DNA of 64,000 bases from Dehalococcoidia bacterium. Lineage in GTDB: Bacteria; Chloroflexota; Dehalococcoidia; UBA2979. The translations under genes and the position numbers were made by a program. This document shows positions 32,845 to 45,301 of this stretch, piece by piece. The notes beneath the pieces are model-generated. The model saw nothing but the letters and a program-made list of their open reading frames with translations. It was not told the DNA's origin and made no database searches. Every line of letters starts with the position of its first letter. Positions within the stretch are counted from its first letter, which is position 1. The stretch spans positions 14,496 to 78,495 of the forward strand of contig JAWLHV010000005.1 of assembly GCA_041690175.1 (NCBI GenBank). The letters are read 5' to 3'.

Positions 32845-33177
32845 TCAGACGCCCGGCGGCAGATACTCCAGCATCAGCGTGGTCATCGGCTCGCCCTCCG
32901 TCCAGAGACGGTGGGGCACTCCGGCCGGCCACACGATGCGCTGACCGGCCTCCAGCGGGTACGCCTCGCCAGCGACGGAGACAAAGCCGCGGCCTTCGAG
33001 GCAGGCCACGTCGATGTCCCACTCCGCCGCATGCTCGTCGATGGTTGCGTCCGCCGCGAAGCGGAGTTGGGCCAGGAGGACCTCCGGCTCGTGCTGGATG
33101 ACGCGCACCTCCACGCCGCGGCATCCCGGGCGAGGCACGGGCGTCCATTCGGGGCGAGCAAACGGCTCTGGCTTCAT
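32845..33177 (-). CDS. cupin domain protein
   Basis: small beta-barrel-type sequence with conserved His and Glu; generic cupin call. Confidence 0.5.
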   Translation of the reverse strand: MKPEPFARPEWTPVPRPGCRGVEVRVIQHEPEVLLAQLRFAADATIDEHAAEWDIDVACLEGRGFVSVAGEAYPLEAGQRIVWPAGVPHRLWTEGEPMTTLMLEYLPPGV

Positions 33178-33178
33178 C

Positions 33179-33715
33179 TCACGCTCCCTCTGCCCACTCC
33201 GGGCCCGCCACCCGTCGCATCGCCCGACGCTCCGCCACCGGCCGCAGGTCCCGCAGTGACGGGATGAGCAGCCCCGCCACCGGATGGCGCACCTCGGCGG
33301 CGATCTCCGCCAGCGGCACCAAGACGAACGCCCGTTGCGTCAGCAGCGCGTGCGGCACCGTCAGGTCCGCCTCGTCCACGCGCTCGCCCTCGATGAGCGC
33401 GATGTCCACGTCCAGCGGGCGCGCCGTCCATCGAGGCGCCTTGAAGTTGCGCCCGGCCTCGGCCTCCAGTTGCTTGGCAAGGGCGAGCAACTCACGCGGC
33501 GCGAGGTCGCTGGGCCCGCCGACGGCGGCGTTCAGGAACGGCGGCTGAACAGTCACCCCCCAGGGCGGCGTCTCGTACAGCGAGGAGACCGCGTCGACGG
33601 CCACGCCGGCCTCGCGCAGCCCTCGGACGGCGGCGCGCAAATGCGATTCCCGGTCGCCGAGGTTGGAGCCCAGCGCGAGGTAGACACGGCGGGCGTACCG
33701 GCGCGGCGCGCTCAC
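33179..33715 (-). CDS. folK: 2-amino-4-hydroxy-6-hydroxymethyldihydropteridine pyrophosphokinase
   Basis: VYLALGSNLGDRESHL...ETPPWG...LDVDI. Confidence 0.9.
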   Translation of the reverse strand: MSAPRRYARRVYLALGSNLGDRESHLRAAVRGLREAGVAVDAVSSLYETPPWGVTVQPPFLNAAVGGPSDLAPRELLALAKQLEAEAGRNFKAPRWTARPLDVDIALIEGERVDEADLTVPHALLTQRAFVLVPLAEIAAEVRHPVAGLLIPSLRDLRPVAERRAMRRVAGPEWAEGA

Positions 33716-33731
33716 CGGGCCGCGCCCGGCG

Positions 33732-34586
33732 TCACGGGACGGCGTTCCGCACGATGGCGTCCGTCACCCGCGCGACCTGCGCCATCTCCTCCACGTCATG
33801 CACGCGCACGATGTCCGCGCCGCGCTCTATGGCAATCGCGATGGTCGCGGCCGTGCCGTAGGTGCGCTCCTGCGCCGGCCGGTCGATGACGTAGCCGATG
33901 GACGACTTCCGAGACGTCCCCACCAGCAGCGGCCGCCCCAGCCCCTTGAGTTCGTCCAGCCGCCGCAGCATCTCAAAGTCCCGCACGGGCCCCCAGCCGA
34001 AGCCGTACCCGGGGTCCACGATCACCTGGGACTCGGGCAGGCCCGCCGCGACAGCGGCCGCGATCCCCGCGTCCAGCCCGGCGCGGATGTCGCCAATCAC
34101 GTCGCCACCGAAGGTGCGCCCGCGCTGGTTGTGCATCACCACCACCGGCACGCCCGCCTCCGCGACCACCCGCGCCATGGCGGGATCGCCTCGAAGCCCC
34201 GTGACGTCGTTCACGGCGTCCGCGCCATACTCCAGCGCGCGGCGGGCGACCTCTGCCTTCGACGTGTCCACGGAGATCGGCACGCTCACGGCGCGGCGGA
34301 CGGCGCCCAGCACCAGGTGCAGGCGCTTCCACTCGTCCTCCGCGTCCACGGGGGCGAACTCCGGCCGAGTGGACTCGGCGCCCACGTCCAGCAAGTGCGC
34401 GCCCGCGGCCACCATCGCCTCCGCCTGTCGGGCTGCCTCGGCCGGGTCGGGGACACCGTCTCCGGAGAAGGAGTCCGCAGAGGCGTTGATGATCCCCATG
34501 ACGTGGGTCTGACGCCCCCATTCGAAAACCTGACCGCCGATGGTGATCGGAGGCGGGACGGGCCAGTCGCGCGGCGGCGTCATCAC
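33732..34586 (-). CDS. folP: dihydropteroate synthase
   Basis: GIINASADSFSGDG...DVGAESTRP...VSVDT...DPGYGFG. Confidence 0.9.
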   Translation of the reverse strand: MMTPPRDWPVPPPITIGGQVFEWGRQTHVMGIINASADSFSGDGVPDPAEAARQAEAMVAAGAHLLDVGAESTRPEFAPVDAEDEWKRLHLVLGAVRRAVSVPISVDTSKAEVARRALEYGADAVNDVTGLRGDPAMARVVAEAGVPVVVMHNQRGRTFGGDVIGDIRAGLDAGIAAAVAAGLPESQVIVDPGYGFGWGPVRDFEMLRRLDELKGLGRPLLVGTSRKSSIGYVIDRPAQERTYGTAATIAIAIERGADIVRVHDVEEMAQVARVTDAIVRNAVP

Positions 34587-35014
34587 ACGACCTCGATGGG
34601 TTCTTCCGTGATGTCGCCGCCGCGGGTGATCAGGTAGGCACGTACGTCCGGCTCTTCATGCTCCAGCGAGACCAGGATGTAGTAGGTGCCGGGGAACATC
34701 GGTTCCTGGTCCATCTCTCCGGGCGGGAAGAACGCCATGCGCACGTCCGTGCGCGAGGGATACGCCCTCGAGGCGACATGCGAGTGGTAGATGGCGAACA
34801 GCGAGTCCCCACCGTCCTCGCGAGCGCGCTCCAGCCGCATCATCTGCAGCGGGTCCATCTCGTAGCGGTAGGGGCTGGCGGCGGCGTTCTTGACGCGATG
34901 CACCTCCACGGGCACGCCGTCCCGCCCGTGCACCATGCCGCACGCCTCGTTCGGCAGGTCCTCGCGCGCGTGCGCAACCATCTCGTCGACGACCGCCCGT
35001 GGGATCCGTGGCAT
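34583..35014 (-). CDS. mec: JAMM/MPN+ metalloprotease (Mec+-like)
   Basis: JAMM motif EACG...YHSHVASRAYPSRTD; 143 aa; its stop overlaps the folP start by 4 nt. Confidence 0.85.
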   Translation of the reverse strand: MPRIPRAVVDEMVAHAREDLPNEACGMVHGRDGVPVEVHRVKNAAASPYRYEMDPLQMMRLERAREDGGDSLFAIYHSHVASRAYPSRTDVRMAFFPPGEMDQEPMFPGTYYILVSLEHEEPDVRAYLITRGGDITEEPIEVV

Positions 35015-35076
35015 CTACCGCTCGTTTCTGCCTTCTGTCCCTCATCCAGATGGCGGAGGGCCGTTCTGCCTTCAGT

Positions 35077-35100
35077 CCCCTCCCCCTTTATGGGGGAGGG
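35077..35100. repeat. GC-rich palindromic hairpin (cccctcccc-loop-ggggagggg), downstream flank of the DUF559 gene
   Basis: cccctccccctttatgggggaggg; same motif family as 8607-8632, ~9076-9100 and 35471-35493. Confidence 0.75.
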
Positions 35101-35454
35101 CTAGGGAGGGGGTTCCGAGGTCAGTGCGTGCCAGACAGCCTGTTCCACCGATTCCAGGGCAGTGAGCACCTCTCGATTGCTGAAACGCAACACCCGCAGC
35201 CCCCGGCTCCTCATCCATGAGTCGCGCGCGTCATCGTAACTTCGCTGCTCGGCATGGTGGTTGCCATCCACCTCGATAACCAGTTGCCGCTCGATGCAGG
35301 TGAAGTCCGCGAAGTACGGGCCGAGAGGCTGCTGCCGGCGGAACTTGACCCTGCGAACCGGCGGCGGCGGAGCACCTGCCACAAGCGTCGTTCCGCCTCG
35401 GTGGGACTGCTGCGAAGGGATCGCGCACGTTCTCGACGATGGCGTCCCATGCAT
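35101..35454 (-). CDS. DUF559 endonuclease-domain protein (Vsr-like fold)
   Basis: VRRVKFRRQQPLGPYFADFTCIERQLVIEVDGNHH...LRFSNREV; ORF 35101..35517 trimmed to exclude the hairpin-derived N-terminus (SPFMGEGRGGG). Confidence 0.7.
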   Translation of the reverse strand: MHGTPSSRTCAIPSQQSHRGGTTLVAGAPPPPVRRVKFRRQQPLGPYFADFTCIERQLVIEVDGNHHAEQRSYDDARDSWMRSRGLRVLRFSNREVLTALESVEQAVWHALTSEPPP

Positions 35455-35470
35455 CGTCCCCCCACCCCGG

Positions 35471-35493
35471 CCCTCCCCCATGAAGGGGGAGGG
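35471..35493. repeat. GC-rich palindromic hairpin, upstream flank of the DUF559 gene
   Basis: ccctcccccatgaagggggaggg. Confidence 0.75.
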
Positions 35494-35507
35494 TGCCGGA
35501 AGCAGCG

Positions 35508-35909
35508 CTACGTCCATGCCTCCGGCTCGCCGTCATCGATGCAGGCGCCGACCGCCATCTTCATCTGCAGGAAGTTCACGCTGCCCGGCTGCGGGAGCAG
35601 GTGGGCGATCCAGTGGTCGCGCTCCTCCTCCGGCAGCCGGTCCAGCAGATCACCCAGCGTCGCGTGGAGGACGGCCGCGCCTGCTTCCCCCTCGGCCGCG
35701 GGCGCGATGCCCACGTCCACGGACCAGCGATTGGGGACGTTCACGCGGCCCACCGTGCGCGTCCGGACCAACTGAGCCCCGGGCATCGAGCGATACCGGT
35801 CCAGCACCGCCGAGTCGAAGCGCAGGTGCAGGCGGCGGCCGTCGCCGGATGCCAGCACCCGGCGCAGGAGCGCCTGCTCCAACGAGGCCGCGTCCCTTGA
35901 GGCTGCCAT
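35508..35909 (-). CDS. hypothetical protein
   Basis: 133-aa ORF with plausible codon usage between the rhodanese and DUF559 genes; no recognisable family. Confidence 0.35.
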   Translation of the reverse strand: MAASRDAASLEQALLRRVLASGDGRRLHLRFDSAVLDRYRSMPGAQLVRTRTVGRVNVPNRWSVDVGIAPAAEGEAGAAVLHATLGDLLDRLPEEERDHWIAHLLPQPGSVNFLQMKMAVGACIDDGEPEAWT

Positions 35910-35934
35910 GCCGCCCTCGATCCCGAGCCCGCCG

Positions 35935-36756
35935 CTACTTCTCGATCGGCACGCCCACCATGGAGCCGTACTCGGTCCATGAGCCGTCGTAGTTCTTCAC
36001 GTTGGGGTAGCCCAGAATGTGCTTCAGCACGAACCACGTGTGGCTGGAGCGCTCGCCGATGCGGCAGTAGGCGATGGTGTCTCCACCGGACTGCACGCCC
36101 GCGCCCTCGTACAGCGCCTTCAGTTCGTCAGGCGACTTGAAGGTGCCGTCCTCGTTCACTGCGCGTGCCCACGGGATGTTGCGTGCGCCGGGGATGTGCC
36201 CCCCGCGCTGCGCGGTCTCGCTCATGCCGGGAGGGGCAATGACCTCGCCGGTGAACTCCGCGGGGCTGCGCACGTCCACCAGGTTGATGCCGGAGCCCAG
36301 GGCCGCCAGCACGTCGTCCCGGCGGGCGCGGAGGCTCATGTCCGGCTCCTTCGCCTGGTAGGAGGCGGGCTGGATCTCCGGGTCCGCGGTAGTGCTGGGG
36401 CGGTTGTCCGCCAGCCACTTCACGCGGCCGCCGTCCATGAGCGAGACGTTCTGGTGGCCGTACAACTCCATGAGCCACAGCGCGTAGGCGGCGAACCAGT
36501 TGTTGTTGTCGCCGTAGAGCACCACGTGCGTGTCCGGGGTGATCCCAGAACGCTCCATGAGCGCCTCGAAGTCCTGCTTGGACAGGATGTCGCGGGTGGT
36601 CGCGTCCTGGAGTTGCGTGGTCCAGTTCCAGCCCACCGCGCCATCGATGTGGCCCTCGCGGTAGGCCTCGGTGTCTACGTCCACCTCGACCAGGCGGATG
36701 TTGGGGTCGTCCTTGTGCTCCTGCACCCAGTCGCAGGTCACGAGTCGCTCGGCCAT
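35935..36756 (-). CDS. sseA: thiosulfate / 3-mercaptopyruvate sulfurtransferase (tandem rhodanese)
   Basis: ORF trimmed to MAERLVTCDWV with GGAGG RBS; active-site loop CRIGERSS; two rhodanese domains. Confidence 0.85.
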   Translation of the reverse strand: MAERLVTCDWVQEHKDDPNIRLVEVDVDTEAYREGHIDGAVGWNWTTQLQDATTRDILSKQDFEALMERSGITPDTHVVLYGDNNNWFAAYALWLMELYGHQNVSLMDGGRVKWLADNRPSTTADPEIQPASYQAKEPDMSLRARRDDVLAALGSGINLVDVRSPAEFTGEVIAPPGMSETAQRGGHIPGARNIPWARAVNEDGTFKSPDELKALYEGAGVQSGGDTIAYCRIGERSSHTWFVLKHILGYPNVKNYDGSWTEYGSMVGVPIEK

Positions 36757-36860
36757 GTCAGTCCTCCGTGCTTGTCCGTCCATCGATGCGCGTGCCGCCC
36801 CCTGCGGAGGCGGTGTGTCTGCCCCTCGGTGCGGCGGTCAGCGCCCTCACGCGCGCGGCG

Positions 36861-37796
36861 CTACCACCACAACTTCTCCGCGACCGCCTCGCGGATGTCC
36901 TCGTACTCCTGGCTCCACAGGCCCGTGGACAGGTACTTCCAGCCGCCGTCCGCCAGCAGGCAGACGATCTTGCCGGACTCCATCCGTTCCGCCGTCCGCT
37001 GCGCGGTGCGCACCACGGACCCCGCGGAGATGCCCGCGAAGACGCCGGTCTTCTGCGTGAGTTCCTTGGTCAGGGCGAACGACGTGGCGGAGTCCACCAC
37101 GATGCGGCCGTCCAGGACCTGGTCGTCGAAGACCGGCGGGATGTAGCCGTCCTCCAGGGCGCGCAGGCCCTGCACCAGGTCGCCGGGGTGCGGCGCCGCG
37201 GCCACCACGCGTATGGCCGGGTTGTGCTCCTTCAGCCGCCGGCCGGTGCCGGTCAGCGTCCCACCGGTGCCCAGGCCCGCCACGAAGACGTCCAGGTCCG
37301 GCAAGTCCGCAATGATCTCCGGCGCGGTGGTCTCGTAGTGGGCGCGGGGGTTCATCTCGTTCTCGTACTGGAACAGCATCACCCACTTCGGGTTCTGATC
37401 CCGGATCTCCGTGGCCCGCCGCACGGCGCCGTTGGAGCCCAGGTCGCCCGGCGAGAAGATGATCTCCGCCCCGTACGCGCGCAGCAGGCCGGTGCGCTCC
37501 TCCGAGACCGCGTCCGGCATGACGATCTTCACACGGTACCCGCGCAGGCTGCCGATCATCGCCAGGGCGATGCCCGTGTTGCCGCTGCTGGGCTCCAGGA
37601 TGGTGTCGCCCGGCTTCAGCAGGCCAGTACGCTCCGCTTCCTGCACCATGAACCACGCGATCCGGTCCTTCACGGAGCCGGTGGGATTCTGGCCCTCCAA
37701 CTTCGCCCAGATCTCCACGCGCGGGTTCGGGGACATCGCGGAGATGTCCACCAGCGGCGTGTTGCCGATGAGGTCCAGCAGGCTCTTCACCTTCAC
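36861..37796 (-). CDS. cysM: cysteine synthase, CysM-like (PLP-dependent, predicted to use a CysO thiocarboxylate)
   Basis: LIGNTPLV...NPTGSVKDR...SSGNTGIALA; lies immediately downstream of a CysO-like gene. Confidence 0.85.
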   Translation of the reverse strand: MKVKSLLDLIGNTPLVDISAMSPNPRVEIWAKLEGQNPTGSVKDRIAWFMVQEAERTGLLKPGDTILEPSSGNTGIALAMIGSLRGYRVKIVMPDAVSEERTGLLRAYGAEIIFSPGDLGSNGAVRRATEIRDQNPKWVMLFQYENEMNPRAHYETTAPEIIADLPDLDVFVAGLGTGGTLTGTGRRLKEHNPAIRVVAAAPHPGDLVQGLRALEDGYIPPVFDDQVLDGRIVVDSATSFALTKELTQKTGVFAGISAGSVVRTAQRTAERMESGKIVCLLADGGWKYLSTGLWSQEYEDIREAVAEKLWW

Positions 37797-37819
37797 CGGA
37801 GCGCTCCGATCTCCCGCTG

Positions 37820-38098
37820 CTACAGCCCGCCGGCCAGCGCCGGCAGGAAGGAGACGGTGTCGCCGTCCTTCAGGGCCGTGTCCTTGCCCCCCAGGTACCG
37901 CACGTCCTCGTCGTTCAGGTAGATGTTCACGAAGCGACGGAGGTCGCCGTTCTCGTCCACCACGCGCGAGGCGAACCCCGGGTAGTTGTCCTCGATGCGG
38001 TCGATCAACTCGCCGACGGTGGAGCCGTCAGCCGTGAACTCACGCTGCCCGTTCACGACCTGCTGGATCACAGAGGTCACGTGTACGGTCACGGCCAT
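37820..38098 (-). CDS. cysO: CysO/ThiS/MoaD-like sulfur carrier protein (copy 1)
   Basis: 92 aa; beta-grasp signature RRFVNIYLNDEDVRYLGGKDTALKDGDTVSFLPALAGG followed by a single extra Leu before the stop. Confidence 0.8.
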   Translation of the reverse strand: MAVTVHVTSVIQQVVNGQREFTADGSTVGELIDRIEDNYPGFASRVVDENGDLRRFVNIYLNDEDVRYLGGKDTALKDGDTVSFLPALAGGL

Positions 38099-38198
38099 GC
38101 GTCCGTCCTTCCCTCGCGTGGGGCGGCCTCGCCTGCCCCCGCCTCTCGATGGTCCCCGGCCGCCCCGCGTCGGCGAGGCGGTCCGAGGCAGCCGCCAC

Positions 38199-39053
38199 CT
38201 ACGCGGTGGCGGCCGGCATCTCCAGCGGCGGCGAGCCGCAGAAGGCGTCGTAGTCGATCAGTTCGGTCACCGTCGGGTTGTCACCGCAGAGCGGGCAGGA
38301 CGGGTCGCGCCGCAACTTCATGGTGCGGAACTCCATGGTCAGCGCGTCCACCAGCAGCAGGCGGTTCACCAGCGGGTTACCGATGTCCAGGATCTGCTTG
38401 AAGACCTCGGTGGCCTGGATGGAGCCCACGATGCCCGTGATCGCGCCCAGCACGCCGGCCTCCGCGCAGGAGGGCACCAGTCCCGGGGGCGGGGGGTCCG
38501 GGTAGAGGCAGCGGTAGCAGCCGCTGCCCGGCTTGTAGACCGTGGCCTGCCCGTCGAAGAGCAGGATCGCGCCGTCCACCAGCGTCTTCCCGGCCAGGTA
38601 GCAGGCGTCGTTCACCAGGTAGCGGGTGGCGAAGTTGTCCGCCCCGTTCACCACGATGTCGTAGTCCCCGATGATCTCCATCGCGTTGTCGCTGGTGATC
38701 GGCGTGTGGTGCTTCACCACCTGCACGTGCGGGTTGTAGGCGTTGAGTTTCTCCTCAGCGGAGACGATCTTCGGCTTGCCCACGTCCGCCGTCTGGTGCA
38801 GCACCTGCCGCTGCAGGTTGGAGAGGTCCACCACGTCGAACTCGACGAGGCCGATCTTCCCCACGCCGGCCAGCGCCAGGTAGAGCGCCACCGGCCCGCC
38901 GAGGCCGCCCGCACCGATCACCAGCACCTTAGCGTTGCGCAGTTTGCGCTGACCCTGCGGGCCCACCTGCGGCATGATGATGTGCCGCGAGTAGCGCATC
39001 ACCTCGTCCGGCGTGAGCGCCTCGGAACGTGGTGTCGTGGCTGCATCAGACAT
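38199..39053 (-). CDS. moeB: MoeB/ThiF-family E1-like adenylyltransferase (MoeZ-like, no rhodanese domain)
   Basis: ORF trimmed to MSDAATTP; YSRHI...VLVIGAGGLGGPVALYLALAGVG; zinc ligands CYRC and CPLC. Confidence 0.9.
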   Translation of the reverse strand: MSDAATTPRSEALTPDEVMRYSRHIIMPQVGPQGQRKLRNAKVLVIGAGGLGGPVALYLALAGVGKIGLVEFDVVDLSNLQRQVLHQTADVGKPKIVSAEEKLNAYNPHVQVVKHHTPITSDNAMEIIGDYDIVVNGADNFATRYLVNDACYLAGKTLVDGAILLFDGQATVYKPGSGCYRCLYPDPPPPGLVPSCAEAGVLGAITGIVGSIQATEVFKQILDIGNPLVNRLLLVDALTMEFRTMKLRRDPSCPLCGDNPTVTELIDYDAFCGSPPLEMPAATA

Positions 39054-39339
39054 CGGATTCCCCCGATCCACCCGCCAGCGCGGGGATGACGGCAACCTGG
39101 TCGCCGTCCGAAACCTTGGTGTCGATCCCATCGAGATCATGGATCTCGGTGTTGTTCAGGTAGACGTTGATGTGCGTGGGGACGCGGTGGTCGGCGTCGT
39201 AGACCAGGTTCGCGAACCCGGGAAAGACCCGCTCCACGGCGTCCAGCACCTCCCCCACCGTATCGCCCTCCACCGTGACGTTCTCGCGGTTCGCCGTGAT
39301 CCGCCGGAACGGGGAGGGGATGTACACGCTGACCGGCAT
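39046..39339 (-). CDS. cysO: CysO/ThiS/MoaD-like sulfur carrier protein (copy 2) with C-terminal extension beyond GG
   Basis: MPVSVYIPSP...GFANLVYDADHRVPTHINVYLNNTEI...DGDQVAVIPALAGG-SGESDV; aligns along its whole length with copy 1. Confidence 0.8.
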   Translation of the reverse strand: MPVSVYIPSPFRRITANRENVTVEGDTVGEVLDAVERVFPGFANLVYDADHRVPTHINVYLNNTEIHDLDGIDTKVSDGDQVAVIPALAGGSGESDV

Positions 39340-39402
39340 GCCGATCCTGATCACTGTGCCCGCGGGCCCGCCGGGGAGCCGCGAGGCGTCCGTGTTGACT
39401 GC

Positions 39403-40344
39403 CTACATCGATACCGTCAGGTAGCGCTCACCGGTGTCGCAGAGCATCGTGACTACCCGCTTGCCGGGGCCCAGTGCCCGCGCCACCTTGAGCGCAGCCC
39501 AGACATTGGCGCCGGAGGAGATGCCGACCAGCAGCCCCTCCTCCCGCGTCAGCCGCTTCGTCATCTCCAGCGCGTCCTCGTCCCGGACGCCGATGATCTC
39601 GTCATAGACCTCGCGGTTCAGGACGGTCGGCACGAAGGACGCGCCGATTCCCTGGATGCCGTGGATGCCCGCGCGCCCGCCCTGCAGCACCGGCGCCCGC
39701 GAAGGCTCCACCGCCACGATGCGCGCGTCCACGCCCTCTGCCCGCAGCACCTCGCCCACGCCGGTCACCGTGCCGCCCGTGCCCACGCCGGCGACAAAGG
39801 CGTCCAGCGCGCCGCCGGTGGCGGCCAGGATCTCGCGTGCGGTCGTGGCGCGGTGGGCCTCCGGGTTGGCCGGGTTCTCGAACTGGCCCAGCATCACGTA
39901 GCCGTGCTTCTCCACCAGTTCCTGGGCGGCGTGCACCGCGCCCGTCATGCCCTCGATGGCCGGGGTCAGCACCAACTGCGCGCCGAAGCGCTCCAGCAGG
40001 CGGCGGCGCTCCACGCTCATGTCCTCCGGCATGGTCAGCACCAGCCGGTAGCCCTTGGTGGCGCAGACCATGGCCAGGCCAATGCCGGTGTTGCCGGACG
40101 TGGGCTCCACCAGCGTGTCGCCCGCCTTCAGGGTGCCGGCCGCCTCCGCCTGCTCCACCATGGAGCGGGCGATGCGGTCCTTCACGGAGCCGCCAGGATT
40201 GAAGACCTCGAACTTGCCCAGGACCTCCGCGCAGCGATCGTCGACCACGCGGTTCAGCCGCACGAGCGGCGTGTTGCCAATGAGGTCCAACACGGAAGCC
40301 GCAATGGCGGGCTGGCGCGTCGTCGACTGGTCCGGGGCAACCAC
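39403..40344 (-). CDS. cysM: cysteine synthase (CysK/CysM family), second copy
   Basis: GTG start with AGGAG 6 nt upstream (VVAPDQ...SVLDLIGNTPLV...GGSVKDR...TSGNTGIGLA). Confidence 0.85.
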   Translation of the reverse strand: MVAPDQSTTRQPAIAASVLDLIGNTPLVRLNRVVDDRCAEVLGKFEVFNPGGSVKDRIARSMVEQAEAAGTLKAGDTLVEPTSGNTGIGLAMVCATKGYRLVLTMPEDMSVERRRLLERFGAQLVLTPAIEGMTGAVHAAQELVEKHGYVMLGQFENPANPEAHRATTAREILAATGGALDAFVAGVGTGGTVTGVGEVLRAEGVDARIVAVEPSRAPVLQGGRAGIHGIQGIGASFVPTVLNREVYDEIIGVRDEDALEMTKRLTREEGLLVGISSGANVWAALKVARALGPGKRVVTMLCDTGERYLTVSM

Positions 40345-40376
40345 GATGGCTCCTGTGTCCGCGAGACTCGAGTCCG

Positions 40377-40817
40377 CTAGATGCTGTAGTTGATCACGGC
40401 CTGCTGCTCGTGTTCCCGCTCGTGTTCCACGAGCTGGGCAACCGAGACGGCGGCCAGCGTCTTGCGCATGTTGTCGTAGATCTCCTGCCAGACCCACTCC
40501 TGGCCGCAGATCGCCTCCTGGCCCGGGACGGTGTTGTCCAGGCAGGCGAGCGGGGCCAGCGAGCCCTCCAGCGCCTCCAGCACGTGCAGCAGGCAGATCT
40601 CCTCCGCCGGCTTCGCCAGCAGGTGCCCGCCGCCCGGACCGCGCACGCTCCGCACGAAGCCCGCGCGACGCAGTTGCGCCAGCAGGTGGTCCAGGTAGGA
40701 CTCCGGGATCTGCCGGCGACGCGCGATCTCCGCCCGCTGCACGGGGCCGGAGCCCTCGTGCTTCGCGAGGTCGATCATGGCGCGGACGCCGTAGTCACCC
40801 TTGGTGCTCAGGAGCAT
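40377..40817 (-). CDS. Rrf2 family transcriptional regulator (CymR/IscR-like)
   Basis: ORF trimmed to MLLSTKGDYGVRAMIDLA...; wHTH; first gene of the cysteine cluster. Confidence 0.85.
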   Translation of the reverse strand: MLLSTKGDYGVRAMIDLAKHEGSGPVQRAEIARRRQIPESYLDHLLAQLRRAGFVRSVRGPGGGHLLAKPAEEICLLHVLEALEGSLAPLACLDNTVPGQEAICGQEWVWQEIYDNMRKTLAAVSVAQLVEHEREHEQQAVINYSI

Positions 40818-40965
40818 GATGCGAGCCGGATACCCCCGCCGGAGGCACCGCTGGCGGGCTTCCGACAATTCACGACTAAATCAGTCGACATTGTACCAGA
40901 TACCTCCCCTCCGTATAGTTCGCGCCTCACCAGCCCAGCACCGCCTGCCCCCAGGAGTACCGCCC

Positions 40966-41460
40966 ATGCCGCCCGCCGACCCGCCCGTCCACGAGCGCGA
41001 CGTCTTTGCCACGCGCCTGCGCGCCGTCTTCGAGCGGCTGGCGGAGAACGTGGAGGCCATCCCCACCGCCGAGTTGGACACGAGGGTCCTGGCGGACGGG
41101 AACACCCCGGCAGTGCTGGTGGCGCATGTGCTGGGCTCCGCCCGCGCGTCCGTCCTGGGCATCGGCTGCGGCATCGAGGTCGAGCGGAACCGCGCAGACG
41201 AGTTCGCGGCAGAGGGCGGCACGCCGGCAGGCCTGGGGGCGGCACTGCGGGCGTTCCTGCAGGAGGCGGAACGCGCGCTGGCCGGCACGCCGGACGGCTA
41301 CCTGGACCAGGTGGTGACGCCGCCGCAGGCCTGGCTCGGACTGGTCCCGCAGCAACCGATGGCTCGCCGCGCGGCGATCCTCTCCTCCATCGCCCACGCC
41401 TCGGAGCACCTGGGCGAGTTGATGTTCATCAAGGACACCCTGGCGGCGCGTGACCGATAG
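40966..41460 (+). CDS. DinB-family (DinB_2 / mycothiol maleylpyruvate isomerase N-terminal-like) protein
   Basis: MPPADPPVHERDVFATRLRAVFERLAENVEAIP...; AGGAG RBS; conserved His in HASEHLGEL. Confidence 0.6.
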   Translation: MPPADPPVHERDVFATRLRAVFERLAENVEAIPTAELDTRVLADGNTPAVLVAHVLGSARASVLGIGCGIEVERNRADEFAAEGGTPAGLGAALRAFLQEAERALAGTPDGYLDQVVTPPQAWLGLVPQQPMARRAAILSSIAHASEHLGELMFIKDTLAARDR

Positions 41461-41514
41461 GCCGGTGCACCGGGTCGGTTGACGGACCCGCTCGCTCTCT
41501 ATAACCTCTCGGTT

Positions 41515-41892
41515 ATGGAACAAGCCGCCGCCGTGCACGGACCGGAACCGCTGGACGCGGTCTTCGCCGCGCTGGCGGATCCCACGCGGCGGGCGATCCT
41601 CGCGCGGCTCGCGCAGGGCGAGGCGTCGGTGGCCGAACTCGGCGAACCTTTCGAGATGAGCCAGCCTGCGATCTCCAAGCACCTGAAGGTACTGGAGCGG
41701 GCAGGGCTGATCTCGCGCCACCGCGACCGCCAGCGCCGTCCCTGCCGCCTGGAGGCCCAGCCCATGGCGGACGCCACCGCCTGGCTGGAGCGCTACCGCC
41801 AGCACTGGGAAGGCCAGTTCCAGCAACTCGATGCCCTTCTCGTGGAGATGAAGGGGCTCGCAGAGATGAAGTCGGGCACGGCCCGCCCGTAG
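41515..41892 (+). CDS. ArsR/SmtB family transcriptional regulator
   Basis: ALADPTRRAILARLAQGEASVAELGEPFEMSQPAISKHLKVLERAGLI. Confidence 0.8.
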   Translation: MEQAAAVHGPEPLDAVFAALADPTRRAILARLAQGEASVAELGEPFEMSQPAISKHLKVLERAGLISRHRDRQRRPCRLEAQPMADATAWLERYRQHWEGQFQQLDALLVEMKGLAEMKSGTARP

Positions 41893-41924
41893 CCCACTAC
41901 GAACCGGTACGAAGGAGTCTCCCC

Positions 41925-42410
41925 ATGCCCGCAGCCACCGAGGTCGTCGCGCAGGGCGACCGCGCCATCCGCGTCACACGCGACTTCGATGCCCCCGTCG
42001 CCCTGGTCTGGGACGCGTTCACCAGGCCGGAGTTGCTCCAGCGCTGGATGGGCGTCTTCGGCGACTGGGAGTGGGAGTCCTGCGAGAGCGACCTCCGCGA
42101 GGGCGGCTCGTGGCGCTACGCCTGGAAGCAGCGGGAGGGCACGGGCCGCCTCGTGCTGGCGGGCACCTACCGCGAGGTGGTGCGCCACCAGCGCATCGTG
42201 ATGACGCAGCGCTACGAGATGGAGGGCCTCCCGGATTTCGGGGAGATGCTGGTCACCACCACCTTTACCGAGTCGGACGGCCGCACCCTCCTGGACGAGG
42301 TGGTGGAGTACCAGACCGCCGAGGCCCGTGACATGGACCTCCAGAACATGCCGCAGGGCCTGGAGCCGGGCTTCGCCATGCTGGACGGCGTGCTGGCGTC
42401 GTTGCGCTGA
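41925..42410 (+). CDS. SRPBCC / AHSA1-like (activator of Hsp90 ATPase homologue) domain protein
   Basis: IRVTRDFDAPVALVWDAFTRPELLQRWMG...; a typical partner of ArsR regulators. Confidence 0.7.
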   Translation: MPAATEVVAQGDRAIRVTRDFDAPVALVWDAFTRPELLQRWMGVFGDWEWESCESDLREGGSWRYAWKQREGTGRLVLAGTYREVVRHQRIVMTQRYEMEGLPDFGEMLVTTTFTESDGRTLLDEVVEYQTAEARDMDLQNMPQGLEPGFAMLDGVLASLR

Positions 42411-42419
42411 TCGAGGGGT

Positions 42420-42640
42420 GCTCCCTCCGGCCCCCTCCCAGTGGGGTGCGGGAAGTCCCCTCGAGGTTCACCCGCAGCATCGAAGAGGGCGCAGCACGCT
42501 GCGCCCCTACGACGGACAGCCGGTCTGGCCACACCTCGAAGGGCGCCGGCCACCTCCGGCCCCCCTCTCCTTCCCACAGAGGGAAGGAGAGGGTTGGGAG
42601 GGGGGTCTCCGCCTCTGCCCGCTCGGCCTAGCCCGGGAGT
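42420..42640. repeat. partial copy of the GC-rich palindromic repeat element
   Basis: shares gggcgcagcacgctgcgcccctacgacgg and cccctctccttcccacagagggaaggagagggttgggaggggggtctccgcctc with 8605-9130 and 57960-58080. Confidence 0.75.
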
Positions 42641-42641
42641 C

Positions 42642-42920
42642 CTACGCGCCGCCCGCCACGGCCGGAACAATGGAGACCTCGTCGCCATCCTTCAGACCCG
42701 TGGTCAGGCCCTGCAGGAAGCGGACGTCCTCGCCGTTCACGTAGATGTTCACGAAGCGGCGGATCTCCCCGCCCTCGTCCAGCAGGCGCTCGCGCATGCC
42801 GGGGAACTGGCCCTCCAGCGTCGCCACCACGGACTGCAGGTCGCCGGGCTCCGTGTTCACGGTGTCCTGGTTCTGCGTCAGGTTGCGCAGGGGGGTGGGG
42901 ATCTTCACCTTCACGGCCAT
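42642..42920 (-). CDS. ThiS/MoaD/CysO-like sulfur carrier protein (copy 3; GG followed by a single Ala)
   Basis: ORF 42642..43127 trimmed to MAVKVKIPTPLRNL...RRFVNIYVNGEDVRFLQGLTTGLKDGDEVSIVPAVAGGA; last gene of the riboswitch-controlled operon. Confidence 0.75.
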   Translation of the reverse strand: MAVKVKIPTPLRNLTQNQDTVNTEPGDLQSVVATLEGQFPGMRERLLDEGGEIRRFVNIYVNGEDVRFLQGLTTGLKDGDEVSIVPAVAGGA

Positions 42921-43009
42921 CGTTCGGACTCCTCGTCCCGGTCGGTCCCGGGTCAGTGTTGTGTTGTGCTCGTTCTTCGATTCGGCCCGCGGTTCGGTCT
43001 GGGGGCTCG

Positions 43010-43252
43010 CTAACCCTCGACGACGTCGCCCAGGGTGGCCTCGTCCACGCGGACGCCCTTGCTGCGCACCCAGTCCAGGGCGCGGCCCACCTCGTCGTCG
43101 TCGCCTTCCAGGCCCAGGACCACCCACCCCACCTTGGCGTCCACGTCCGCCATGCGGATGTTGGTGATCACCCGGAACTCCTGCCCCAACTGGTAGATCA
43201 GCGGTTCCTTGATGAGTTCCGGGCTGAAGGTCAGTCGCACGTGCTTTTCCAT
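43010..43252 (-). CDS. NIL-domain protein (80 aa)
   Basis: EPLIYQLGQEFRVITNIRMADVD...GWVVLGLEGDDDEVGRALDWVRSKGVRVD resembles the MetN C-terminal NIL domain; lies between the ThrC-like and ThiS-like genes. Confidence 0.65.
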   Translation of the reverse strand: MEKHVRLTFSPELIKEPLIYQLGQEFRVITNIRMADVDAKVGWVVLGLEGDDDEVGRALDWVRSKGVRVDEATLGDVVEG

Positions 43253-43264
43253 GGTGAGGGCCTC

Positions 43265-44518
43265 CTAGGCCGTGACCGGCTCGCCGGAGCGCGCGCGCCG
43301 CGCTTCCACGAAGGACTCTACCGTTGGCTGGACGTGCAGGGGCGCCTCCACCTCGTCCATCACCGCCTCGATGGTCTTCAGGCCGCCGCCGGAGATGATC
43401 GCCACCGTCTCCTCGTCCCGGGGGATGAAGCCGGACTGCACCATCTTCCGCAGACAGGCGATGGTCACGCCGCCCGCAGTCTCCGCGAAGACGCCCTCCG
43501 TCTCCGCCAGCAACTTGATGCCCTCCACCACCTCGGCGTCGGTCACCATCTCCGCGCCGCCGCCGGTCTCCTGCATCTGCTTCAGCGCGTAGTAGCCGTC
43601 CGCCGGATTGCCGATGGCCAGCGACTTCGCGATGGTGTTCGGCTTCTGCGGGACAAAGTTCAGCGTGTCGTTCGCGTAGGCCGTGGCAATGGGCGAGCAG
43701 CCCTCCGCCTGGGCGCCGGACATACGCGTCTTCGGCTCATCGATGAGCCCCACCTTGTGGAACTCCTGCAGGCCCTTCCAGATCTTCGTGTACATGGAGC
43801 CGGACGCCATGGGCGCCACGATGTGCTGCGGCGCGCGCCAGCCCAGTTGCTCCGCGATCTCATAGCCCAGCGTGCGCGAGCCCTCCGCGTAGAAGGGACG
43901 CACGTTGATGTTCACGAAGGCCCAGTTGAACTGCATGGACAGTTCCGTGCACAGGCGGTTCACGTCGTCATAGGAGCCGCGCACGGTGACCAGCGTGGGG
44001 TCATAGATGGCGGAGCCCACCACCTTGCCCTTCTCCAGGTCGTCCGGGATGAAGACCAGGCACTCCATGCCCGCGCCGGCGGCGTGCGCCGCCACGGAGT
44101 TGGCCAGGTTGCCCGTGGACGCGCAGGCGATGGCGTCGAAGCCGAACTCCCTGGCCTTGGCGATCGCCACGGAGACCACGCGGTCCTTGAAGGACCAGGT
44201 GGGGTTCACGGTGTCGTTCTTGATCCAGAGCGTGTCCAAGCCAATGGCCTTCGCCAGGCGGTCGGCGCGGATCAGCGGCGTGTAGCCGTCGCCCAGGTCC
44301 ACCTTGTAGGCGGGGTCGCAGGGCAGCAGGTTGGCGTAGCGCCAGAGCGTGGTGGGGCCGGCGGCAATGGTGTCGCGCGTGGTGGCCTCGCGGATCGCGT
44401 CATAGTCGTACGCGACCTCCAGCGGGCCGAAGCAGAACTCGCACGAGAAGATCGGCGCAATCTCGTACTCGCGGCTGCACTCGCGACACTTCAGAGCGCG
44501 ATGGAACGATGCGGACAT
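43265..44518 (-). CDS. threonine synthase-like PLP enzyme with N-terminal zinc ribbon (predicted homocysteine synthase, MetM-like)
   Basis: LKCRECSREYEIAPIFSCEFCFGPLE then the PLP fold (SFKDR...) over 417 aa; AGGAAGG RBS; preceded by a SAM-I riboswitch. Confidence 0.85.
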   Translation of the reverse strand: MSASFHRALKCRECSREYEIAPIFSCEFCFGPLEVAYDYDAIREATTRDTIAAGPTTLWRYANLLPCDPAYKVDLGDGYTPLIRADRLAKAIGLDTLWIKNDTVNPTWSFKDRVVSVAIAKAREFGFDAIACASTGNLANSVAAHAAGAGMECLVFIPDDLEKGKVVGSAIYDPTLVTVRGSYDDVNRLCTELSMQFNWAFVNINVRPFYAEGSRTLGYEIAEQLGWRAPQHIVAPMASGSMYTKIWKGLQEFHKVGLIDEPKTRMSGAQAEGCSPIATAYANDTLNFVPQKPNTIAKSLAIGNPADGYYALKQMQETGGGAEMVTDAEVVEGIKLLAETEGVFAETAGGVTIACLRKMVQSGFIPRDEETVAIISGGGLKTIEAVMDEVEAPLHVQPTVESFVEARRARSGEPVTA

Positions 44519-44750
44519 ACGGAGGACCTTCCTCGATGGGTTGACCGACGGAGCCAGCGCTCCGGCTGTGTCGTGGATGAGGTGGGTGCGGGAGGCCCGG
44601 TCTGCGCGCCGCGGTCTCGTGGAGGGCGGACGCGCGCCGGGCTAGCGCATCGACATGCGCGACATGCGCACGAGCATCTCACCCACGAGGAGGGTGAAGG
44701 GACGATGCGAGCCGGATGAGGAGTCGGACGAGATCATCGTGTAGCGCCTT

Positions 44751-44880
44751 CCGTTCATCTTCCCCGGCGCCCGTCCGTGTATGGCGCTCGGGCCGGAATT
44801 AGCACCGTGTCCGCCCAGGCATAGGCGACCGGTTGCCGCGGCTTCACAGGGCCGGAACCCTCCACCGCTCTGGATGAACC
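44751..44880 (-). promoter_or_regulatory. SAM-I (S-box) riboswitch aptamer
   Basis: Minus-strand transcript GGUUCAUCCAGAGCGGUGGAGGGUUCCGGCCCUGUGAAGCCGCGGCAACC...GGUGCUAAUUCCGGCCC...GGGGAAGAUGAACGG matches the S-box consensus block by block (P1 GUUCAUC/GAUGAAC, AGAGnGGUGGAGGGA, GGCCC, GAAgCC, GGCAACC, GUGCyAAUUCC). Confidence 0.85.
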
Positions 44881-44977
44881 GCCGGAGCCCCGTCGAAGGG
44901 CCAGCCCGGCAAGTCACTGACAAGGCTAGGAATCGCGCGCTTCTTCTGTCAATCCGCGCGTGTCCGAGGGGAGCCCG

Positions 44978-45301
44978 CTACCCCTCGCCGGTGGCGGTGC
45001 GGCGGGCGGCGGCGATGCGGGCGTGGTTCACGGCCGTGCGTACGGCCTCCAGGTCCACCTGCCCGCCGCTGCTCACCACCTGGCCGTCCACCTCCACCAC
45101 CGGGATCTCCAGCAGGAAGCGGCGCTCCAGGCCCTCGTCGCCCTCGATGTCCCGAGGGGCCAGGTGGAAGGGGATGGTGCGCTGGAGCGAGAGCAGCAGG
45201 GCGCGGGCCACCTCGCAGAGGTGGCAGTCACGGCGGGTGTAGAGCACCACGCTGGGGGCCTCGCCGGGGACGCGCGGCACGCCGCGCAGGTTGGCCGTCA
45301 T
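44978..45301 (-). CDS. glutaredoxin-like protein (DUF836 / glutaredoxin 2 family)
   Basis: ORF trimmed to MTANLRGVP...VVLYTRRDCHLCEVARALL...IPVVEVDG; 4-nt overlap with the lgt stop. Confidence 0.7.
   Translation of the reverse strand: MTANLRGVPRVPGEAPSVVLYTRRDCHLCEVARALLLSLQRTIPFHLAPRDIEGDEGLERRFLLEIPVVEVDGQVVSSGGQVDLEAVRTAVNHARIAAARRTATGEG

Follow-up and report, generated by a model that had tools for sequence, protein, structure and literature searches.

How many sulfur carriers can a single E1 enzyme serve, and which enzyme does each carrier supply? The question is raised by a seven-gene cluster at positions 35935-40817 of a 64,000-nucleotide stretch of DNA from a Dehalococcoidia bacterium (assembly GCA_041690175.1, contig JAWLHV010000005.1, positions 14,496 to 78,495), here called the window. 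The cluster encodes two pyridoxal phosphate (PLP) enzymes, CysK and CysM, two carriers, ThiS1 and ThiS2, a MoeB-like E1, a rhodanese and an Rrf2-family regulator; a third carrier, ThiS3, is encoded upstream with a MetM-like enzyme. We consider it somewhat probable that three CysO-family carriers, each with a PLP enzyme of its own encoded alongside, share a single E1, a single rhodanese and a single JAMM protease.

Window proteins were assigned with Pfam and NCBIfam models, and the cut-offs quoted are NCBIfam equivalog values. Start codons were picked by ribosome-binding sites and orthologue alignment. The cluster comprises the following genes, in order of transcription.

40377..40817, minus strand: Rrf2-family regulator (146 residues; PF02082, 128.7 bits; 32 nucleotides to CysK)
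39403..40344, minus strand: CysK (313 residues; GTG start behind AGGAG; 63 nucleotides to ThiS1)
39046..39339, minus strand: ThiS1 carrier (97 residues; PF02597; -8 nucleotides to MoeB, an overlap)
38199..39053, minus strand: MoeB/ThiF-type E1 (284 residues; PF00899, 273 bits; 100 nucleotides to ThiS2)
37820..38098, minus strand: ThiS2 carrier (92 residues; PF02597; 23 nucleotides to CysM)
36861..37796, minus strand: CysM, Mycobacterium tuberculosis type (311 residues; PALP; 104 nucleotides to SseA)
35935..36756, minus strand: SseA-type two-domain rhodanese (PF00581 in two stretches)

All seven genes are intact and, as the initial annotation had it, co-directional; the Pfam and NCBIfam families run Rrf2, PALP, ThiS, ThiF, ThiS, PALP and two-domain rhodanese. 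These assignments bear out its reading of a M. tuberculosis CysO/CysM-type sulfur-carrier cysteine locus with a common MoeB-like E1 and a rhodanese. Its description of the genes as tightly spaced holds for four of the gaps (32, 63, -8 and 23 nucleotides) but not for the two of about 100 nucleotides, in which a comparison across relatives found nothing conserved except the ribosome-binding site. The upstream carrier and moeB, which had been placed 5 nucleotides apart, in fact share an 8-nucleotide overlap, the carrier TGA overlapping the moeB ATG (ATGTCTGA).

Conservation was assessed in 80 loci retrieved with the window MoeB from GTDB species-representative genomes (individual loci are given L numbers). 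The order Rrf2-CysK-ThiS1-MoeB-ThiS2-CysM was found in about 69 of the 80, cultured Tepidiforma flava among them, and given this recurrence the gene arrangement is far beyond chance. SseA follows CysM in about 30 of the 80 loci; SseA, a JAMM gene and folP/folK come after the operon in the nearer half of the loci that have it. The long-read contigs L082 and L083 have an identical 20-kb layout, and a few lineages carry only (Rrf2-)MoeB-CysM or MoeB-SseA. The closest relatives of the window MoeB, at 91-92% identity, are from Dehalococcoidia/Chloroflexota metagenome-assembled genomes; more distant ones include cultured Tepidiforma flava and a Thermoflexus genome.

The upstream PLP enzyme, previously labelled CysM, scored 436.2 bits against the cysK model TIGR01139 (cut-off 350.95) and 300 against the cysM model TIGR01138 (cut-off 394). 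Its best solved relatives were Geobacillus CysK (2EGU, 366 bits) and M. tuberculosis CysK1 (2Q3B, 342 bits), both aligned gap-free; M. tuberculosis CysM was not among its best 60 solved relatives. The PLP lysine, the TSGNTG substrate loop, the GTGGT phosphate loop and GISSGA are all retained (alignment to 2EGU, and sequence). On these scores and motifs it is classed as a canonical CysK, O-acetylserine sulfhydrylase A.

The downstream PLP enzyme has M. tuberculosis CysM as its best solved relative (3DWG/3DKI, 303 bits), followed by a CysK (244) and Escherichia coli CysM (240). Its R212 aligns with M. tuberculosis R220 (...GLRALEDGYIPP... versus ...ALRNMDEGFVPE...), the arginine that had been singled out for checking. 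The C-terminal tail ...EKLWW aligns with M. tuberculosis ...GQLW, the alignment reaching the last residues. In work attributed to Agren in 2009, the C-terminal extension of M. tuberculosis CysM is said to protect the aminoacrylate intermediate and to select the sulfur donor. The downstream enzyme is predicted to be a M. tuberculosis-type O-phosphoserine/CysO-thiocarboxylate cysteine synthase. Both window enzymes carry the SVKDR motif with the PLP lysine, and neither is a pseudogene. In M. tuberculosis, CysK1 takes O-acetylserine and sulfide, and CysM takes O-phosphoserine and the CysO thiocarboxylate (PMC11361707).

M. tuberculosis CysO was the best solved match of all three carriers, at 51.5 bits for ThiS1, 85.6 for ThiS2 (3DWG_C; A. 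orientalis CysO, 4N6E_B, gave 82.7) and 80.5 for ThiS3. Pairwise identity among the three is 35-43%. A neighbour-joining tree was built from the carriers of 16 loci together with CysO from M. tuberculosis and from A. orientalis, both known as crystal structures. It gave three clean orthologous clades, with ThiS2 sister to characterised CysO and ThiS1 as the outlier, its clade lying outside CysO, ThiS2 and ThiS3. By tree and score ThiS2 is assigned as the CysO orthologue. The upstream carrier had also been called CysO; it is placed instead as a CysO-family paralogue in a separate clade, and not as an orthologue of characterised CysO.

The initial annotation had seen duplicated CysM-CysO pairs, which, taken literally, would be a recent tandem duplication of the pair within the operon followed by divergence. 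The gene order is mirror-like about moeB, each pair does consist of a PLP enzyme and a carrier, and the copies are clearly diverged, as had been noted (carriers 40% and PLP enzymes 44% identical). However, CysK and M. tuberculosis-type CysM belong to long-separated subfamilies. The carriers fall in separate old orthologous clades that each span the whole class, ThiS2 is nearer to actinobacterial CysO than to ThiS1, and the upstream carrier is usually an N-terminal domain of the E1. Family assignments and tree thus contradict a recent duplication, which we regard as very improbable.

The E1 has the motif GAGGLG, two CxxC pairs (CYRC and CPLC) and an active-site cysteine in SCAEAG, and it aligns with E. 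coli MoeB (1JW9, 201 bits) over residues 13-257, beginning at LTPDEV. It gave no PF00581 rhodanese match and scored 366 against the MoeZ model (cut-off 647), so it is not of the MoeZ/MoeZR type. SseA carries the active-site motif CRIGERS and scored 135 bits against the 3-mercaptopyruvate sulfurtransferase model, below the cut-off of 250; it is presumed to be the persulfide donor to E1-bound carrier adenylates. A protease gene follows about 1 kb downstream.

34583..35014, minus strand: JAMM/Mec-type metalloprotease (143 residues; PF14464, 76.7 bits; stop overlaps the folP start)

The JAMM metal site is intact, with E23 (NEACG) and HSHx7Sx2D (HSHVASRAYPSRTD), and solved JAMM relatives were matched. 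The gene is conserved after the operon in about 40 loci, always followed by folP-folK. The window showed no second E1 or JAMM gene. In mycobacteria one E1, MoeZR, serves several carriers, MoaD and CysO among them (PMC3227635).

A JAMM protease would be needed because all three carriers bear residues past Gly-Gly: SGESDV in ThiS1, L in ThiS2 and A in ThiS3. Among relatives the tail may be absent or may read A, R, L, I, V, M, C, S, AR or something else, a free variation of the kind expected if a JAMM protease trims the precursor. A tandem duplication of the carrier C-terminal tail was observed in some relatives (L029 2911-3276, L007 7267-7572 and L073 4323-4640; e.g. ...GGSAIPALAGGSAIPALAGGSGTPAAAGGWGA, GGSGIPALAGGSGA, GGSQPALAGGSQPALA), giving several candidate Gly-Gly cleavage sites per carrier.

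In the proposed scheme, MoeB would adenylate the carrier C-terminal Gly-Gly, SseA would give persulfide sulfur to turn the carrier adenylate into a thiocarboxylate, and the JAMM protease would first trim the residues past Gly-Gly and later free the amino acid from the carrier-amino acid adduct. ThiS2 (CysO) and the M. tuberculosis-type CysM would act on O-phosphoserine. ThiS3 (MetO-like) and the MetM-like enzyme, which is under S-adenosylmethionine (SAM) riboswitch control, would act on O-phosphohomoserine. ThiS1 and the canonical CysK may act on O-acetylserine, which is the least certain step, and CysK probably takes free sulfide as well. The CysO/CysM and MetO/MetM links rest on homology; the ThiS1-CysK link we infer.

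In about 52 loci ThiS1 is fused in frame to the MoeB N-terminus, giving a carrier-E1 protein of 362-393 residues. The fusion junction reads ...IPA[LI]AGG, then a 2-30-residue linker, then LTPE.V.RYSRH..., and the E1 part starts where E. coli MoeB begins, at its residue 4. ThiS1 and MoeB are split in the window and its nearest relatives, the junctions differing, and close relatives alternate between fused and free ThiS1. Among relatives the ThiS1 Gly-Gly is followed by 0-30 residues or by the entire E1; some free forms end exactly at Gly-Gly. Whether ThiS1 is fused or split, its PA[LI]AGG tail hardly varies. An assembly or frameshift artefact behind the split was ruled out: stand-alone ThiS1 of 92-104 residues occurs in dozens of independent contigs, long-read ones (with a 4-nucleotide overlap) included, and the junctions differ. 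We propose that ThiS1 was ancestrally the N-terminal domain of the E1 and is now a separate, translationally coupled gene in the window lineage. Because it is usually that domain, the primary partner of the upstream carrier by gene structure is MoeB and not a synthase. Where ThiS1 is fused, JAMM cleavage after Gly-Gly would free it.

Carrier-E1 fusions were common in a profile search of 1.8 billion cluster representatives, which also gave carrier-E1-rhodanese triple fusions, an E1-TusA-carrier protein, and a carrier fused to a sulfite-reductase-like protein. A second set of 80 metagenome loci was fetched with one of the carrier-E1-rhodanese triple fusions. At least 40 of these 80 are arranged as (Rrf2-SseA-)cysteine-synthase homologue-JAMM-[CysO-like carrier fused to E1-rhodanese] (a widespread soil lineage; examples L096, L101, L104, L117, L125 and L134, with about 35 other metagenome loci). 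The soil-lineage synthase is nearest to enterobacterial CysM/O-acetylserine sulfhydrylase B (OASS-B), at 206 bits. No carrier besides the fused one was found in these soil-metagenome loci. Since it is the sole carrier there, the fused carrier is taken to be the working one, and the adjoining JAMM gene is the obvious candidate for the releasing enzyme. A literature search for a Chloroflexota CysO locus or a CysO-E1 fusion found nothing beyond Iyer et al. 2006 (PMC1779556), and no description of the soil carrier-MoeZ fusion was found in the searchable literature.

ThiS1 might instead be no sulfur carrier at all but a beta-grasp domain that stays uncleaved on the E1 and has a docking or auto-regulatory role, occupying or gating the carrier-binding site or recruiting partner enzymes. 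Iyer, Burroughs and Aravind (2006) described N-terminal fusions of a ubiquitin-like (Ubl) domain to ThiF in operons with a solo ThiS, and inferred a different role for the fused domain where the two co-occur (PMC1779556). Some linkers are of two residues only (GG-QV-LTPEQV), leaving little space for a protease, and the fused Tepidiformales operons have no JAMM gene nearby. The near-invariance of the PA[LI]AGG tail, fused or split, is a constraint typical of E1 substrates, however, and the alternation of fused and free forms among close relatives, some ending right at Gly-Gly, also speaks against docking. The soil loci argue against fused beta-grasp domains as mere docking modules: their only carrier is fused, in an operon with JAMM and cysteine synthase genes, so it must be released there. 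A docking role for ThiS1 is judged improbable.

The third carrier belongs to a separate module upstream of the cysteine operon.

44752..44880, minus strand: SAM riboswitch leader of the MetM-NIL-ThiS3 operon (RF00162, 70.4 bits; gathering score 44.4; E = 2e-14)
43265..44518, minus strand: MetM-like threonine-synthase (ThrC) homologue (Pfam/NCBIfam assignment)
43010..43252, minus strand: small NIL-domain protein (Pfam/NCBIfam assignment)
42642..42920, minus strand: ThiS3, CysO-family carrier, MetO-like (ends Gly-Gly and Ala; M. tuberculosis CysO, 80.5 bits; own clade)

A ThrC homologue thus adjoins a CysO-like carrier behind a SAM riboswitch, and from its gene content the module is probably a MetM/MetO-type homocysteine operon. 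Automatic annotation would name the MetM-like gene threonine synthase; it is probably MetM. The ThrC-like, NIL and ThiS3 genes lie upstream of the cysteine operon in about 40 loci. According to a 2026 GapMind preprint citing Hasebe 2024, Streptomyces albulus makes homocysteine by a MetM/MetO thiocarboxylate route that also needs Mec and MoeZ. The MoeB, SseA and JAMM proteins of the cysteine operon are likely a shared hub for the MetM module too. In the window, DinB/mycothiol-transferase-like, ArsR-family and AHSA1/SRPBCC genes (40801-42410, plus strand) lie between the Rrf2 and MetM operons; some relatives (e.g. L013, L019 and L020) have only 100-500 nucleotides between the two.

The remaining question is which enzyme uses ThiS1. 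In the 80-locus set, every locus with ThiS1 has CysK next to it. Carriers of the ThiS1 type (YIPTP[FY]R, H.N.Y.N) were found only beside canonical CysK, and CysO-type fused carriers with an OASS-B-like enzyme; the rearranged lineage of L084 has the order SseA-[ThiS1-like~E1~Rhd]-CysK. Mirror-tree partial correlations were computed over 63 operons, with subsampling. The values were 0.37 for ThiS1-CysK versus 0.11 for ThiS1-CysM, and 0.32 for ThiS2-CysM versus 0.22 for ThiS2-CysK; neighbour pairing was favoured in 0.93 (ThiS1) and 0.87 (ThiS2) of the subsamples. The earlier proposal of two carrier-specific synthases was sustained in part: the substrates look different (O-acetylserine versus O-phosphoserine type, with R212), and weak co-evolution with conserved adjacency fits neighbour pairing. 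We see a service of ThiS1 to CysK as a serious possibility, short of probable. The fuller proposal is that the canonical CysK draws sulfur from a dedicated ThiS1 thiocarboxylate, E1-born and JAMM-released, so that three parallel carrier-specific PLP reactions would run from one hub and avoid free sulfide. This we put forward tentatively and hold to be doubtful.

Two further observations concern carriers and CysK. In L160 (1108-4310), CysK and CysE (serine acetyltransferase) are encoded directly upstream of a CysO-like carrier and an E1-rhodanese, linking the O-acetylserine pathway to a carrier and E1. The idea of a CysK-carrier fusion as a Rosetta stone was rejected: P0366, the sole fusion with a C-terminal carrier that was inspected, joins E1, TusA and a carrier and has no CysK.

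The main rival to the ThiS1-CysK link holds that ThiS1 is unrelated to CysK. ThiS1 would be a general carrier of the E1 (MoaD-, TtuB- or ThiS-like, acting in tRNA thiolation or towards molybdenum cofactor or some other thio-cofactor) or else a second, redundant CysO that serves CysM. CysK would use free sulfide and sit by Rrf2 as a CymR-type co-repressor, leaving three independent modules: Rrf2 with CysK, ThiS1~MoeB, and CysO with CysM. In its favour, the fusion binds ThiS1 structurally to the E1 and not to CysK, the mycobacterial E1 serves MoaD as well as CysO (PMC3227635), a CymR-CysK precedent exists (PMC10594633), and the window has an XdhC gene, which implies enzymes with molybdenum cofactor and hence a requirement for a MoaD-type carrier. 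ThiS1, however, does not reach the MoaD_arch cut-off, and its nearest match is CysO, neither MoaD nor ThiS. Its gene is invariably placed behind the Rrf2 promoter of the cysteine operon, carriers of its type were seen only next to canonical CysK, the rearranged lineage included, and its residual co-variation is higher with CysK than with CysM or MoeB. We rate a general or redundant role for ThiS1 as somewhat unlikely.

Several results weigh against ThiS1 as the donor of CysK and against the scheme as a whole, the first three being also points for the general-carrier alternative. CysK is wholly canonical, with no insertion, deletion or motif change relative to sulfide-using CysK, and nothing in its sequence calls for a protein donor. 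L026 has retained CysK-MoeB after the loss of ThiS1. L162 has ThiS1~MoeB and CysM with no ThiS2, so one carrier may be able to stand in for another. Within a single clade, adjacency reflects inherited synteny and is not independent evidence, and the mirror-tree signal of adjacent genes can stem from shared local history. No cysE was found in the 64-kb window. No JAMM gene lies close to the operon in the Tepidiformales loci, and these carry the fusion. Scans of 33000-45200 for sigma-70 promoters and intrinsic terminators returned no sites of either kind, so that they neither support nor delimit a transcription unit.

A conserved control element was found upstream of the Rrf2 gene.

40867..40898, minus strand: promoter and putative Rrf2 operator (extended -10 TGGTACAAT running into the palindrome TGTCGACTGATTTAGTCGTGAATT at 40890..40867)

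The same conserved element precedes the Rrf2 gene of more than 50 related loci across the class. An operator weight matrix was trained on 52 other loci, with the window left out. The site in the window scored 32.6, and the sole other match above 12 in the 64 kb was the same palindrome on the opposite strand; the matrix found no further Rrf2 operator before ThiS2, SseA, JAMM or MetM. A single conserved operator over the promoter means that the operon is most likely auto-repressed by the Rrf2 product from one promoter. That promoter would drive Rrf2-CysK-ThiS1-MoeB-ThiS2-CysM-SseA and probably also an orphan gene, the JAMM gene and folP/folK.

The regulator had been described as CymR-like. It belongs to the Rrf2 family (PF02082) and is CymR/IscR-like, but it fell below both equivalog cut-offs (CymR model, 106.2 bits versus 195; IscR model, 106.3 versus 207.55) and is classed as a generic Rrf2 member. 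It has two cysteines, C92 and C104, at IscR ligand positions, where IscR has three. The constant adjacency of its gene to that of CysK recalls the CymR-CysK complex of Firmicutes, and CysK may likewise act on it as co-repressor.

Two further features lie between the rhodanese and the JAMM gene.

35508..35909, minus strand: conserved orphan gene (133 residues; invariant Cys123 in an ACIDDG motif)
35066..35505, no strand assigned: small inserted element (DUF559 fragment; 47-nucleotide imperfect inverted repeats at 35066-35112 and 35459-35505)

The orphan and JAMM genes overlap in L082 and L083, with nothing between them; in the window the DUF559 element interrupts this junction and looks like a small mobile insertion inside the operon. 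About 35 related loci keep the JAMM-folP-folK order (33179-35014 of the window, minus strand), in which genes for folate biosynthesis are coupled to one for a carrier protease. Genes around the operon are housekeeping ones (purF/purM/purH, folP/folK, lgt, murT and ychF), and the G+C content of the window is about 70% throughout. The JAMM protease, the orphan gene, the Rrf2 operator and the third carrier/MetM module were all absent from the initial annotation.

For annotation, genes of this type named 'MoaD/SAMP1' should be read as carriers of the CysO family, and the pair of 'cysteine synthases' as non-redundant. A few actinobacteria and Wolinella are the known sources of protein-thiocarboxylate routes to cysteine and methionine. 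Here a large, mostly uncultured clade (Dehalococcoidia, cultured Tepidiforma included) appears to wire both carrier routes and the classical CysK route around one E1. The locus offers natural fused and split variants of the carrier-E1 pair and a testable case for an ordinary CysK using a protein sulfur donor, with the conserved orphan protein and the defined Rrf2 operator as experimental handles. If the fuller proposal for CysK and ThiS1 is true, the carrier-E1 'polyprotein' found widely among Chloroflexota and soil bacteria would be the bacterial counterpart to ubiquitin-fusion precursors.

A precedent for the proposed CysK-ThiS1 step is the HcyS/HcyD/HcyF/MetY system of Wolinella succinogenes. 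There, as Krishnamoorthy and Begley reportedly found in 2011, the carrier has one extra residue past its Gly-Gly that JAMM removes, and an otherwise ordinary sulfide-type sulfhydrylase uses a protein thiocarboxylate, making homocysteine from O-acetylhomoserine. It differs from the step proposed here in that product and substrate. To our knowledge there is no evidence yet of any canonical CysK using a protein thiocarboxylate.

One of the systems most like it is the CysO-CysM-Mec(+)-MoeZR pathway of M. tuberculosis (PMC11361707, PMC3227635; Burns 2005, Agren 2008 and O'Leary 2008, as cited in PMC11361707). CysM matches at 303 bits with the R220 equivalent and the tail, ThiS2 matches CysO at 86 bits, and JAMM protease, E1 and rhodanese chemistry are all represented. 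Unlike its M. tuberculosis counterpart, the window E1 has no fused rhodanese, a separate two-domain SseA being encoded in the operon, and the window CysO (ThiS2) has an extra C-terminal residue. A canonical CysK and a second carrier are encoded in the same operon as the E1, the rhodanese and the regulator, and the JAMM gene lies downstream, coupled to folP-folK, in contrast to the mec-cysO-cysM order.

The MetM/MetO system of S. albulus, as described in the GapMind preprint, shares a threonine-synthase homologue next to a CysO-like carrier, a SAM riboswitch and dependence on Mec and a MoeZ-type E1. In the window a NIL-domain protein is encoded between the two, the E1 and protease are common to the neighbouring cysteine operon, and the system is known from its genes. 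Iyer et al. 2006 (PMC1779556), whose paper includes a Chloroflexus example, likewise described ThiS/MoaD, E1, JAB and cysteine synthase as neighbours in operon type 4c, and Ubl-ThiF fusions that place a beta-grasp domain on the E1 N-terminus with a solo carrier in the same operon. The fused domain here, however, is of the CysO family with a conserved Gly-Gly, and not the Ubl of Campylobacter ThiF described as 'distinct from ThiS'; two synthases and two carriers are present, and fused and split forms alternate among close relatives.

In the CymR-CysK complex of Bacillus and Staphylococcus (PMC10594633), too, a Rrf2-family cysteine regulator partners CysK. In the window their genes are neighbours and would be co-transcribed, the complex is putative, and the regulator differs from CymR in scoring below the model cut-off (106 versus 195 bits) and in its two cysteines at IscR ligand positions. 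Set against these systems, the locus represents a variant of known thiocarboxylate pathways that is conserved across its clade, and nothing categorically new. It is distinguished from them by three carrier paralogues with one E1, a carrier that occurs now fused to the E1 and now free, the placing of a canonical CysK in a carrier operon, and a conserved orphan protein.

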